22,691 nucleotides of DNA, taken from a virus. Lineage: Duplodnaviria; Heunggongvirae; Uroviricota; Caudoviricetes. Within the stretch, counting starts at the first letter, position 1. Every line of letters begins with the position of its first letter. The position numbers and the translations under genes are program-made. Below are positions 6,266-8,604 of this stretch, in pieces. The stretch lies in the IMG/VR virus record IMGVR_UViG_643886067_000002. One strand, given 5' to 3'. The notes below the pieces were generated by a model. That model had not been told where the DNA came from and ran no database searches. It saw only the letters and a list, made by a program, of their open reading frames with translations.

Positions 6266-6544
6266 TTAAAACCACTCCCTGAGCGGGCGCTCTGGTGTAA
6301 CCACCCACTCACGGAACACGGAATCATCAAATCCATCGTCAAGAAGACGGATATTAACAAAGTACCCTTCGTTTCGCGTGTATTCTGGTTCTCCGTCATC
6401 AGAAACATCTGTCTCCCTGAACGTAAAACCAATCTCATCAACCAGAACGGCATTCTGCAGCTCTTCGTCCTCTTCCCAGTTAAGTTTCCTGAGAAATGCC
6501 CTGAAATCTGCTTTATCACTGAAACGCAACGTGAAATCTCTCAC
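6266..6544 (-). CDS. Small acidic protein, 92 aa, translationally coupled to stf
   Basis: GTG start (6544-6542) overlaps the stf TGA stop (GTGA); strong SD GGGGAGG 7 nt upstream; no ATG anywhere in the ORF; about 23 D/E versus 11 K/R. No family recognised. Confidence 0.5.
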   Translation of the reverse strand: MRDFTLRFSDKADFRAFLRKLNWEEDEELQNAVLVDEIGFTFRETDVSDDGEPEYTRNEGYFVNIRLLDDGFDDSVFREWVVTPERPLREWF

Positions 6545-8604
6545 TCCACAACCTCCCCAAGCTGCGCATCTGTTAGCTCTTTATGCCAGAGACGAAAATT
6601 CCTCACATGCCCAAATAAATGGCGTAATCCTGCTGTAGTTTGTCCACCAATGCGAATGGTTGCTGTACTCCGGATATATTCCCATTTGGTTTTAGTTTCG
6701 CTGCTTAACTTACCGTTACTGACTACACATGTGGACCGTTCGGACTTTACCCGCATACCAATAAGCATTTTTTCCAGCCCGGCATTTTCATTTATTCGTC
6801 GGTCTGAACCACCTATATCACAATACGGAAAACCGTCGTACCCACCTGATGAACCAAACCCCATTACGATCCCCGCTCCGGTTTGATGACCGCCGGTATC
6901 AAAAACACGCGGCGCTACATTTGGCGTTTTATACCAGTTCTTATGTACCTCACAAAGAACCGTAAAAGGAAGATTATAAAGATTATTCTTAATCGGAACT
7001 GTAACCATATCGCTTGCCCGCGTTACCGGTGCCGTCCCCGTAACAATAAAAGATGATGCGCCTGTACCAGCCTCAATCTGTGGAGTGGTTACATCGAGAT
7101 AATCCCCTGATGCAACCATCTGCCCTGTATCCGGAGAATACTGGACAAAACCACCAACCGTATTTTCTGTTGTATCTGCTTTTAATGTAGCCTCAAAAAA
7201 TATCCAGCCAGTTGCATCATCCTTAACAGACCTTGCTGTAACACGGCTTGTCTGACCTGTCTTGCTAATTATGCGGGTGGTAAGGTTCAGGTTTGCTGCT
7301 CCTATTGATGTCCTTACCTCCCCATCATAATGTTCAAATAAAATACGAACGGCGATATTATCAACTTCACTTTTTACCCGACAGGATATAGTTACATGCT
7401 TTTCGTCCCCTGAAGTATCAACCCCTCCGGTACTCGAATACAGTCCGATAATGGTATGCGCTTTACTTGTACCAACAATCGAATCCTGTACGACAAACCG
7501 GCCATAATTAAACCCGAAACTATCTGTGCCTGTTTCTGTAACGTCCAGTGAAGTTGACTTATTCCACTTCGAAGGGTCTGTACTGTTCGGGAAGAAGTTC
7601 GTTCTTTGCCCCTCAATAAGCAGGCCATCACACTCAAATCGTGGCTCATTAATTTCCGCCGTTTTCAGTTCGCCAGATTTGTTGATATATGTTGCCGTTG
7701 ATGCGCGACTGAAATTAACCTGTTTATCACTGGCAACCTGAACCACATTATCACCAATCTTCACTTTTTTATAACCCGGAGAATAGCCCGTAATCATATC
7801 CAGCGAATCATTAAAGGGTATCCACACATCCGGCAGCGGCTGTAAAACATATCTGTACGGCTCTGCTGTCTGGTTTGCGTATTCTCTGGCAGCATCTTCA
7901 CTTGCTTTTGCTGCCGTCTGGCTTGCTGCCGATGCTTTCGCCGAGTTCGCCGCCGCTGTTTCGCTCACCTTTGCGTTGGCTTCACTGTCTTTGGCATTCG
8001 TCTCACTGGTTTTCGCTGCCGTCTGGCTGGATTTTGCGTTTTTTTCGCTGGCCTTTGTGGCTGTCTCGCTATTTTTCGCGCTGGTTTCTGATTTTTTGGC
8101 TGCTGTCGCGGAGTTTGCCGATGCAGTCTGCGAGGCCGCTGCCGCCTGTGCGCTGTTAGCTGCATTCGTTTCTGAGGTTTTCGCCGCGTTCTTCGATGAT
8201 GCCGCTGCAGTTTCGGATTTCTTTGCTGCCGCTGCGCTCTGTGATGATGCTCCGGCATGACGTGCCACTTCATTCACCATCAGCTCAAAACGGCGCAGTG
8301 CCTCCGGCATGACATCATCTTCCGTCATGGCGCCGAGAAAATCATTCAGCGTACCTGGTCTGGAACCTTCATAGACGGTAATGGTCCCGGCATGTGAAGG
8401 CGGAAAATCTTCAACCAGCAGGGTGACGCTGTACTGGCCATACTCAACATCCATGCTGTAACGCCCGGCTTCATCCGGATTTTCAGAGGCCACCGTGTTC
8501 ACCACCACCGTGCTGCTGGTCCGTCTGGCCTTCAGCACAATGGTGCAGTTCTGTACTGGTTTTCCTGTGCCATCTTTAAGCACGCCAGAAATTTTTACTG
8601 TCAT
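6541..8604 (-). CDS. stf: Side tail fiber protein Stf (lambda Stf-like N-terminus, divergent C-terminal receptor-binding region)
   Basis: N-terminus MTVKISGVLKDGTGKPVQNCTIVLKARR...SENPDEAGRYSMDVEYGQYSV...FPPSHAGTITVYE is near-identical in pattern to lambda Stf; central Ala/Ser/Thr/Lys-rich repeat region; C-terminus ends ...VRNFRLWHKELTDAQLGEVVE, resembling the terminal motif of LamG/concanavalin-like domains. Confidence 0.9.
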   Translation of the reverse strand: MTVKISGVLKDGTGKPVQNCTIVLKARRTSSTVVVNTVASENPDEAGRYSMDVEYGQYSVTLLVEDFPPSHAGTITVYEGSRPGTLNDFLGAMTEDDVMPEALRRFELMVNEVARHAGASSQSAAAAKKSETAAASSKNAAKTSETNAANSAQAAAASQTASANSATAAKKSETSAKNSETATKASEKNAKSSQTAAKTSETNAKDSEANAKVSETAAANSAKASAASQTAAKASEDAAREYANQTAEPYRYVLQPLPDVWIPFNDSLDMITGYSPGYKKVKIGDNVVQVASDKQVNFSRASTATYINKSGELKTAEINEPRFECDGLLIEGQRTNFFPNSTDPSKWNKSTSLDVTETGTDSFGFNYGRFVVQDSIVGTSKAHTIIGLYSSTGGVDTSGDEKHVTISCRVKSEVDNIAVRILFEHYDGEVRTSIGAANLNLTTRIISKTGQTSRVTARSVKDDATGWIFFEATLKADTTENTVGGFVQYSPDTGQMVASGDYLDVTTPQIEAGTGASSFIVTGTAPVTRASDMVTVPIKNNLYNLPFTVLCEVHKNWYKTPNVAPRVFDTGGHQTGAGIVMGFGSSGGYDGFPYCDIGGSDRRINENAGLEKMLIGMRVKSERSTCVVSNGKLSSETKTKWEYIRSTATIRIGGQTTAGLRHLFGHVRNFRLWHKELTDAQLGEVVE
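7880..8270. repeat. Imperfect tandem repeats inside stf encoding A/S/T/K-rich units (SETxAKxS...)
   Basis: Recurring DNA motifs such as gctgccgtctggct and ttttcgctg; protein shows repeated AAKKSET, AAKTSETNA, AKNSETA units. Confidence 0.6.

Follow-up and report, generated by a model that had tools for sequence, protein, structure and literature searches.

Side and lateral tail fibres carry out the first step of host recognition and are swapped in the engineering of lambda-based delivery particles and therapeutic phages. The side tail fibre protein Stf of lambda (Ur-lambda) has a fibrous tip that depends on Tfa. The lateral fibres of T1- and T5-like phages are treated as O-antigen-recognising primary adhesins in the BASEL paper (PMC8594841). 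Proteins from other parts of the virion are also relevant here. Rcc01080 of the gene transfer agent RcGTA, a single flexible subunit per capsid head spike (PMC7296036), binds the capsular polysaccharide of R. capsulatus, and its AlphaFold model was called lectin-like (PMC10218006); gp45 of Pseudomonas phage E217 is present as one copy per baseplate triplex and holds on to the tail fibre through its attachment loop (PMC10329688). We compared these systems with the stf gene found in a 22,691-nt stretch of Caudoviricetes DNA (IMG/VR record IMGVR_UViG_643886067_000002; "the window" hereafter means this whole stretch), which represents the tail end of an E. coli lambdoid prophage with its genes on the minus strand. 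We consider it probable (roughly 0.7) that this gene encodes a mosaic side tail fibre with a glycan-binding head of two domains, that Tfa has been lost, and that the product of a small neighbouring gene, orf92, serves as the partner of the fibre.

The N-terminus of Stf is of the lambda type, in agreement with the original prediction, which was made from the sequence alone and had called the first ~120 aa lambda-Stf-like. Residues 1–131 matched PF08400 'Prophage tail fibre N-terminal' (E 1e-66, 223 bits against a cut-off of 26.6), residues 1–94 matched the solved lambda Stf fragment PDB 9e7m ('Tail fiber protein' residues 1–94; E 2e-47), and identity to lambda Stf was ~81% across aa 1–129. When Stf was aligned to lambda orf-401, identity was 73% across aa 1–158; beyond this point, low-complexity Ala/Ser/Lys repeats were all that the two proteins had in common. 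The gene lies 3' of J and lom in a lambda-like tail operon, the position of a lambda-type stf. The shaft following the anchor showed low-complexity similarity to lambda Stf aa 205–296 and also resembled the N-terminal stalks of depolymerases and tailspikes (7vyv, 9cod). It is presumed to form a trimeric helical stalk, by analogy with DT57C LtfA (PMC10713586). A scan of the stalk region for tandem repeats at the DNA level found none. We rejected the reading of stf as a defective remnant because its open reading frame (ORF) is intact and conserved: the region 5900–8700, which contains stf, was 99.5% identical in genomes of extraintestinal pathogenic E. coli (ExPEC) and in the 15 best-matching complete genomes. 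Its identity to the isolated phage PhiR49_2, which has the gene annotated as 'side tail fiber protein', was 97%.

The remainder of Stf, from aa 250 (window position 7857) to aa 687, is a 438-aa non-lambda module of two beta-sandwich domains, D1 and D2. The span originally assigned to the tip, 6541–7350, cuts through the first of these domains. A match to phrog_1419 'tail protein' covered Stf aa 205–686. D1 extends over roughly aa 345–532, with junction strands added on its N-terminal side, and matched the NCBIfam model NF048003 'phage head spike fiber domain' over aa 329–530 (72.1 bits against a curated cut-off of 36). In profile comparisons, it matched the RcGTA head-spike fibre Rcc01080 (E 2e-24), the baseplate proteins E217 gp45 and Pa193 gp46 (E 1e-13), and a CBM-cenC protein (5e-3).

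Evidence for the nature of D2 came mainly from the family. A Pfam scan of whole Stf detected no C-terminal family at E ≤ 1. When the 438-aa module was scanned alone, its residues 381–432 aligned to profile positions 98–149 of 151 of PF13385 (Laminin_G_3; E 0.004, 17.7 bits against a Pfam gathering cut-off of 27.6); this match corresponds to the terminal motif, the C-terminal end of Stf reading ...NFRLWHKELTDAQLGEVVE up to the stop codon. PF13385 was found in 33 of 51 diverse family members at E ≤ 0.01 (best E 1.9e-11), and the T5-like homologue AKFV33 orf137 surpassed the Pfam cut-off (36.2 against 27.6 bits). With a profile built from the C-terminal 156 aa, full-domain matches were obtained in the PDB to 4qvs (E 9e-6) and zebrafish C-reactive protein (CRP; 3e-3), and also to ADGRG6, botulinum neurotoxin (BoNT)/D HCN, and the carbohydrate-binding module (CBM) family CBM40. 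The terminal motif aligned with 'GMIDDFRIFDRALSADEIKTL' of 4qvs and 'GEIANLQMWDYVLSSAQIKAV' of CRP, and in the PDB profile comparison the terminal strand of D2 was aligned to 'G.IDDFRIFDRALSADEIK'. Across the family, G-H-x-R-x-x-R-x-W is almost invariant. Because of the family-level PF13385 matches and the alignments to LamG and pentraxin structures, the LamG/concanavalin-type terminal motif that had been proposed can be regarded, on sequence grounds, as real, with statistical support at the level of the family.

The structure of aa 250–687, whose prediction had been named as a check on the tip, was modelled with AlphaFold2 using an alignment of 50 relatives from the 50%-representative search; the closer search gave near-identical E. 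coli copies only. The single-chain model was confident, with an all-beta, two-domain beta-sandwich fold, a mean predicted local distance difference test score (pLDDT) of 93.3 and a predicted template modelling score (pTM) of 0.90. The predicted fold is the beta-sandwich jelly-roll of concanavalin A (ConA)-like lectins, as judged for D2 and the module. Fold matches were to the HCN lectin-like domains of botulinum and tetanus toxins, the trans-sialidase lectin domain, CBM40, pentraxins, and laminin-G and neurexin LNS domains. The top ranks in Foldseek were held by the Pseudomonas phage baseplate proteins Pa193 gp46 and E217 gp45, which aligned over ~390 columns and both domains (E 1.7e-6 and 1e-5). 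D1 and D2 had no detectable similarity by hhalign, and their origin by internal duplication was rejected on this basis. Across 63 distinct enterobacterial alleles, variability was concentrated in D1 (Stf aa 370–510), and most of D2 was conserved. Since allelic variability peaks in D1 and the LamG domain is more conserved, the LamG 'tip' may not be the main determinant of specificity. The hypervariability of D1 is as expected of a specificity determinant, and we infer that the specificity of the head lies mainly in this domain.

The module is found behind many N-termini. A search of 1.84 billion cluster representatives yielded 3,069 relatives, 73 of them at E ≤ 1e-30. Most of the best matches aligned over the full 438 aa; they were proteins of 420–1481 aa whose N-termini differed greatly in length, and the N-terminal families ahead of the module included PF08400, PF12571, PF03406 and PF18668. 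By tblastn, the module was present in 224 of 50,697 phage records, including lambdoid phages, T1-like Drexlerviridae, Dhillonvirus, Queuovirinae, T5-like Markadamsvirinae and rV5-like Vequintavirinae; the proteins are annotated there as 'lateral tail fiber', 'side tail fiber' or 'tail protein'. In 107 distinct fibre/orf92 pairs, each of four units (N-terminus, D1, D2 and orf92) recombines independently of the others, as in allele pairs with identities of 62% (D1), 88% (D2) and 100% (orf92), or of 98%, 81% and 39%, respectively. At the sequence level, the domain shuffling of the tip that was originally suggested is well supported. The whole 2.8-kb region comprising stf, orf92 and a further small gene, orf98, was covered to at least 80% in 299 of 5,426 complete E. 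coli genomes (~5%), including strains of sequence type 131 (ST131).

The module is thus not rare. It is also already annotated in RefSeq, where PGAP names Stf by its N-terminal domain, and mosaic fibres with a lectin-fold tip are well known. In E. coli EC444 (NZ_CM128674.1, 2714157–2718235; hit H34), the same stf is split by an IS600-family IS3-like element, and the C-terminal fragment is named 'phage head spike fiber domain-containing protein'.

No Tfa gene accompanies the module in the window. A tblastn search of the window with lambda Tfa gave no homologue (best E 2.7), a search with the lambda Stf C-terminus (orf-314) gave no match better than E 1, and orf92 and orf98 matched neither Tfa nor any chaperone family in Pfam and NCBIfam. 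Non-phage genes have begun by 5842, and since the chromosome is reached within ~600 bp of the stf stop, a tfa gene just beyond the window on that side is excluded. The two findings that the original prediction had named as counting against it, homology of the C-terminal region to a Tfa-dependent tip and a tfa gene nearby outside the window, were thus not made, the second as far as this side of the window is concerned. In many related prophages, a 3' remnant of lambda tfa (aa 132 or 156 to 194, 74–89% identical) lies just past the orf98 homologue (632–748 in locus L001; also in L003–L005, L007, L011, L028, L030–L032 and others). It looks like a recombination scar from a swap of 'stf tip plus tfa' for 'module plus orf92 plus orf98'; tblastn detected no lambda tfa remnant in the window.

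The fibre was originally described as having no tfa partner, which holds for Tfa itself but overlooked the coupled 92-aa ORF. An orf92 homologue overlapping the stop codon by 1, 4 or 8 nt is present in 151 of the 153 related viral loci in which the module end is complete. These homologues are 25–100% identical and 86–110 aa long. One of the two exceptions is a contig end, and the other has an unmatched 78-aa ORF at the same position. The pairing persists where the fibre has no lambda anchor and was also seen in a 29%-identical metagenomic relative. An orf92-like gene follows the module in the phages AKFV33, JeffSchatz and PeterMerian and in 17 of 22 genome loci, including those of Aeromonas, Leclercia, Buttiauxella, Silvania and Atlantibacter. 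In a reciprocal test, every one of the 80 loci retrieved via orf92 homology, a sample of copies at least 63% identical only, had a LamG-type D2 immediately upstream. orf92 is therefore the obvious candidate partner of the module, and it is this near-obligate association that goes beyond routine annotation.

The protein itself belongs to phrog_1361 (E 1e-40), a family of unknown function, matched no Pfam or NCBIfam model and is 'hypothetical' in every source. It had no similarity to Tfa or to PDB sequences. An AlphaFold2 model built from database homologues was of moderate quality, and the predicted fold had no chaperone-like match. A distant relative from locus L083, used as homology query, recovered only itself, which reflects a limit of the word index. 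In the literature searched, we found no study of the module's ligand and no description of the small partner, and nothing on ECP_1187, phrog_1361 or phrog_1419. We tentatively propose, with somewhat less than even confidence, that the phrog_1361 family is an unrecognised class of tail-fibre accessory proteins for lectin-type heads (GTA-spike-fibre plus LamG), which would replace Tfa functionally in lambda-, T1-, T5- and rV5-like phages of Enterobacteria and Aeromonas, by chaperoning the fibre or by forming a small distal subunit with a share in determining host range.

Several points weigh against the reading of stf as a mosaic fibre with a glycan-binding head and orf92 as its partner. The PF13385 score of Stf itself falls under the Pfam threshold, and O-antigen binding by the lateral fibres of Drexlerviridae (T1-like) was never directly shown, according to the BASEL paper (PMC8594841). 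The alleles of orf92 do not co-vary with those of D1 or D2 (for example, a D2 identity of 92% pairs with an orf92 identity of 34%), so that a generic or lineage-linked function fits better than a tight, specific chaperone–client pair. Finally, the most distant relatives (Endozoicomonas, a Solemya symbiont and Marinicaulis) have no recognisable orf92, and in Endozoicomonas a different gene lies next to the module.

The lack of co-variation and the missing gene in distant relatives, together with a predicted orf92 fold that resembles no chaperone, speak for an alternative in which the lectin-type fibre would do without a partner. As a rule, ConA-like domains fold without help. Under this alternative, orf92 would be a hitch-hiking moron or an unrelated small gene (e.g., for exclusion or regulation), kept by recombination breakpoints that lie outside it. 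We regard this as unlikely, given that the start–stop overlap of 1–8 nt is maintained in nearly all of the 153 loci, that the pairing is maintained at ~25% identity in Aeromonas and in four unrelated phage families with differing flanking genes, and that no sampled orf92 homologue lay elsewhere than directly after a LamG-type fibre; a typical moron carries a promoter and a terminator of its own and is patchily distributed. In the Solemya gill symbiont and Marinicaulis (L180 1301–1669, L181 3892–4302, L184 3807–4193), an ORF of 122–136 aa lies 3' of the module gene, which it overlaps or closely adjoins (within ~10 nt in Marinicaulis). These ORFs are mutually similar (M.DYITYC..T.AL..EL...), form a family distinct from orf92, and may represent an analogous partner.

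Some relatives possess a second fibre gene. In the 793-aa E. coli alleles, AKFV33 and PeterMerian, the orf92-like gene is followed by a small fibre gene encoding a protein of 231–557 aa that ends in a Peptidase_S74 intramolecular chaperone (L040 5605–6645; L185 4086–5759, AKFV33 orf135; L187 4099–4794, PeterMerian bas05_0029, annotated 'putative lateral tail fiber chaperone'). Among the module loci, PF13884 was found in these second-fibre genes only; Stf had no match to it at E ≤ 1. Such relatives probably build branched fibres, by analogy with those known from DT57C and phiEco32 (PMC4728585). The second fibres and the strong conservation of D2 would suit a module that serves mainly as a docking or branching platform for a smaller fibre, in which case the prophage would be a reduced version without the distal fibre and orf92 an adaptor between fibres. 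This is still less probable than a fibre without a partner, as all alleles of 685–690 aa among the fibre/orf92 pairs compared, the class of the window, including that of PhiR49_2, keep the module and orf92 intact without a second fibre gene, D1 is hypervariable and in this resembles a receptor-binding surface, the rV5-like JeffSchatz has an orf92-like gene with no S74 fibre directly after it, and the docking region of DT57C lies in a different, phiEco32 gp14-like segment (PMC4728585). Since the allele class of the window has no second fibre, the lectin module would be the distal end here. That the tip is instead an enzyme, a ConA-fold glycanase such as a GH16-like depolymerase cleaving O-antigen or capsule, is very improbable, as every one of the best matches is to a binding module without catalytic activity (AbnA domain 4, BoNT HCN, CBM40, pentraxins), an ExDxxE-type GH16 motif was not noticed on reading the translation, without a formal pattern search, and the family invariants P-Q-x-E, R-A-S and G-H-x-R-N-x-R-x-W are structural strand motifs common to the non-enzymatic RcGTA spike fibre.

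In the reading that we prefer, a mosaic fibre with a lectin-like head and orf92 in the place of Tfa, aa 1–131 would insert into the tail tip as the lambda Stf anchor. The stalk (aa 132–249) would trimerise, after which each chain would fold its own globular lectin-like head from a widely exchanged receptor-binding cassette (aa 250–687) of two unrelated beta-sandwich domains. The three independent heads would bind a surface polysaccharide (O-antigen, capsule or similar) and thereby mediate reversible primary adsorption, with the terminal contact made by J. As the heads would not form an intertwined trimeric tip, a chaperone of the Tfa/gp38 type would be dispensable and could be lost from the cassette. 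The translationally coupled orf92 would take its place, most likely as a dedicated assembly factor or a small accessory subunit of the head. The 'different folding solution' suggested in the original prediction is plausible, given that the relatives of D1 are single-copy subunits (RcGTA spike, E217 baseplate) and that the compact two-domain lectin-like fold is modelled confidently as a single chain. Gifsy-1 Stf, a binder of the lipopolysaccharide (LPS) core, is a lambda-type fibre other than this module (PMC12312913), and DT57C LtfA ends in an S74 chaperone (PMC4728585); both were set aside as direct functional evidence because neither has this module.

The features discussed are listed in Table 1, together with neighbouring genes.

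Table 1. Positions in the window of stf, its parts and the adjacent genes.
Feature	Coordinates	Strand	Basis and remarks
stf, complete side tail fibre gene, 687 aa	6541..8604	-	ORF list and translation; stop codon 6541–6543
Lambda-type N-terminal tail-attachment domain, aa 1–131	8212..8604	-	PF08400, PDB 9e7m, lambda orf-401
Ala/Ser/Thr/Lys-rich repetitive shaft, aa 132–249	7858..8211	-	SETNAK/AAKxSE-type repeats
Module part 1, aa 250–532: conserved junction strands and D1 beta-sandwich	7009..7857	-	GTA head-spike fibre homology; most allele-variable region
Module part 2, aa 533–687: D2, Laminin_G_3/pentraxin-like ConA-fold domain	6544..7008	-	PF13385, PDB profile matches
Terminal motif NFRLWHKELTDAQLGEVVE	6544..6600	-	Last beta-strand and tail of D2
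Shine-Dalgarno GGGGAGG	6552..6558	-	Within stf 3' end, 7 nt upstream of orf92 GTG; minus strand ...CTTGGGGAGGTTGTGGAGTGAGAGAT...
orf92, 92-aa acidic protein, candidate fibre partner	6266..6544	-	GTG start overlaps stf stop (GTGA); phrog_1361
orf98, 98 aa, small hydrophobic protein	5960..6256	-	phrog_1443, unknown function, E 4e-44; last gene of cassette
lom	8756..9355		PF06316
J	9423..13115		Tail gene preceding lom and stf

The tail genes preceding J are the tape measure gene (H), M, L, K and I, in a lambda-like order. The ORF of the K-like tail protein (14032..15036, minus strand; JAB and NlpC/P60), 334 aa when read from TTG, overlaps L by ~250 nt, and its real start is probably internal to the called ORF. 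At the other end of the cassette, the orf98 protein has two hydrophobic stretches, and in most enterobacterial loci an orf98-like gene lies 3' of the orf92-like gene, either directly or beyond the second fibre gene. Whether orf98 belongs to the fibre system is uncertain, and it may instead be a membrane moron.

The chromosomal genes past the prophage encode a CxxCxxCC protein, a VapA-family protein, a fimbrial usher, fimbrial subunits and an EAL protein. The VapA-family gene, a 150-aa ORF (4872..5324, minus strand) in E. coli chromosomal DNA beside the prophage end, matched PF05526, the Rhodococcus equi virulence-associated protein (VapA) family (E 5e-34). The usher (3148..4871; ORF of 381 aa) matched only positions 281–548 of the Usher profile, plus PapC_C, and is therefore 5'-truncated; the 580 bp upstream of it (4294–4871) contained no ORF of at least 50 aa. 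Downstream of the usher, 78..3135 encodes the fimbrial subunits, a FimH-like adhesin and the EAL protein.

Mosaic fibre tips with lectin folds are expected biology and not surprising in themselves. The practical interest of this module is that it appears as a self-contained cassette, independent of the anchor and of Tfa, and shipped with one small ORF. For the construction of chimeric fibres, this suggests the rule of transferring aa 250–687 along with orf92 and of seeking specificity in D1.

When set beside the described systems, the locus is like each of them in part. It shares with lambda Stf an anchor of the same family, its place after J and lom, and a repetitive Ala/Ser-rich stalk after the anchor, whereas from aa 250 there is no similarity: two lectin-like beta-sandwiches stand here in place of the Tfa-dependent fibrous tip of lambda, and the position of tfa is taken by the unrelated 92-aa ORF. 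It differs in the same way from Tfa-dependent tips in general (lambda Stf with Tfa; P2 H/G and Mu S/U type), with neither tip homology nor an adjacent Tfa gene, and from the self-cleaving Peptidase_S74 fibres (T5 pb1, K1F endosialidase) in that Stf has no C-terminal PF13884. RcGTA Rcc01080 is homologous to D1, but is a 325-aa single subunit mounted on capsid pentamers via a 10-residue peptide (PMC7296036), and the ~40 residues past its aligned region are insufficient for a D2. E217 gp45 and Pa193 gp46 (PDB 8env_K, 9b45), whose sequences are likewise homologous to D1, are the only solved structures that align over both domains, but they are structural wedge proteins of a myovirus baseplate and not fibre tips (TM-score 0.36, identity 15–16%). 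Laminin_G_3, pentraxin and CBM40-type ConA-like lectins share the fold and C-terminal strand motif of D2, with the sequence of Stf below the Pfam cut-off. The lateral fibres of AKFV33 (orf137, T5-like), PeterMerian (bas05_0031, T1-like) and JeffSchatz (bas55_0026, rV5-like) have other N-terminal attachment domains, and AKFV33 and PeterMerian have an extra S74-chaperone fibre gene that is not in this prophage; all three nevertheless carry the 438-aa module at 35–62% identity over 97–100% of its length, with an orf92-like gene next to it.

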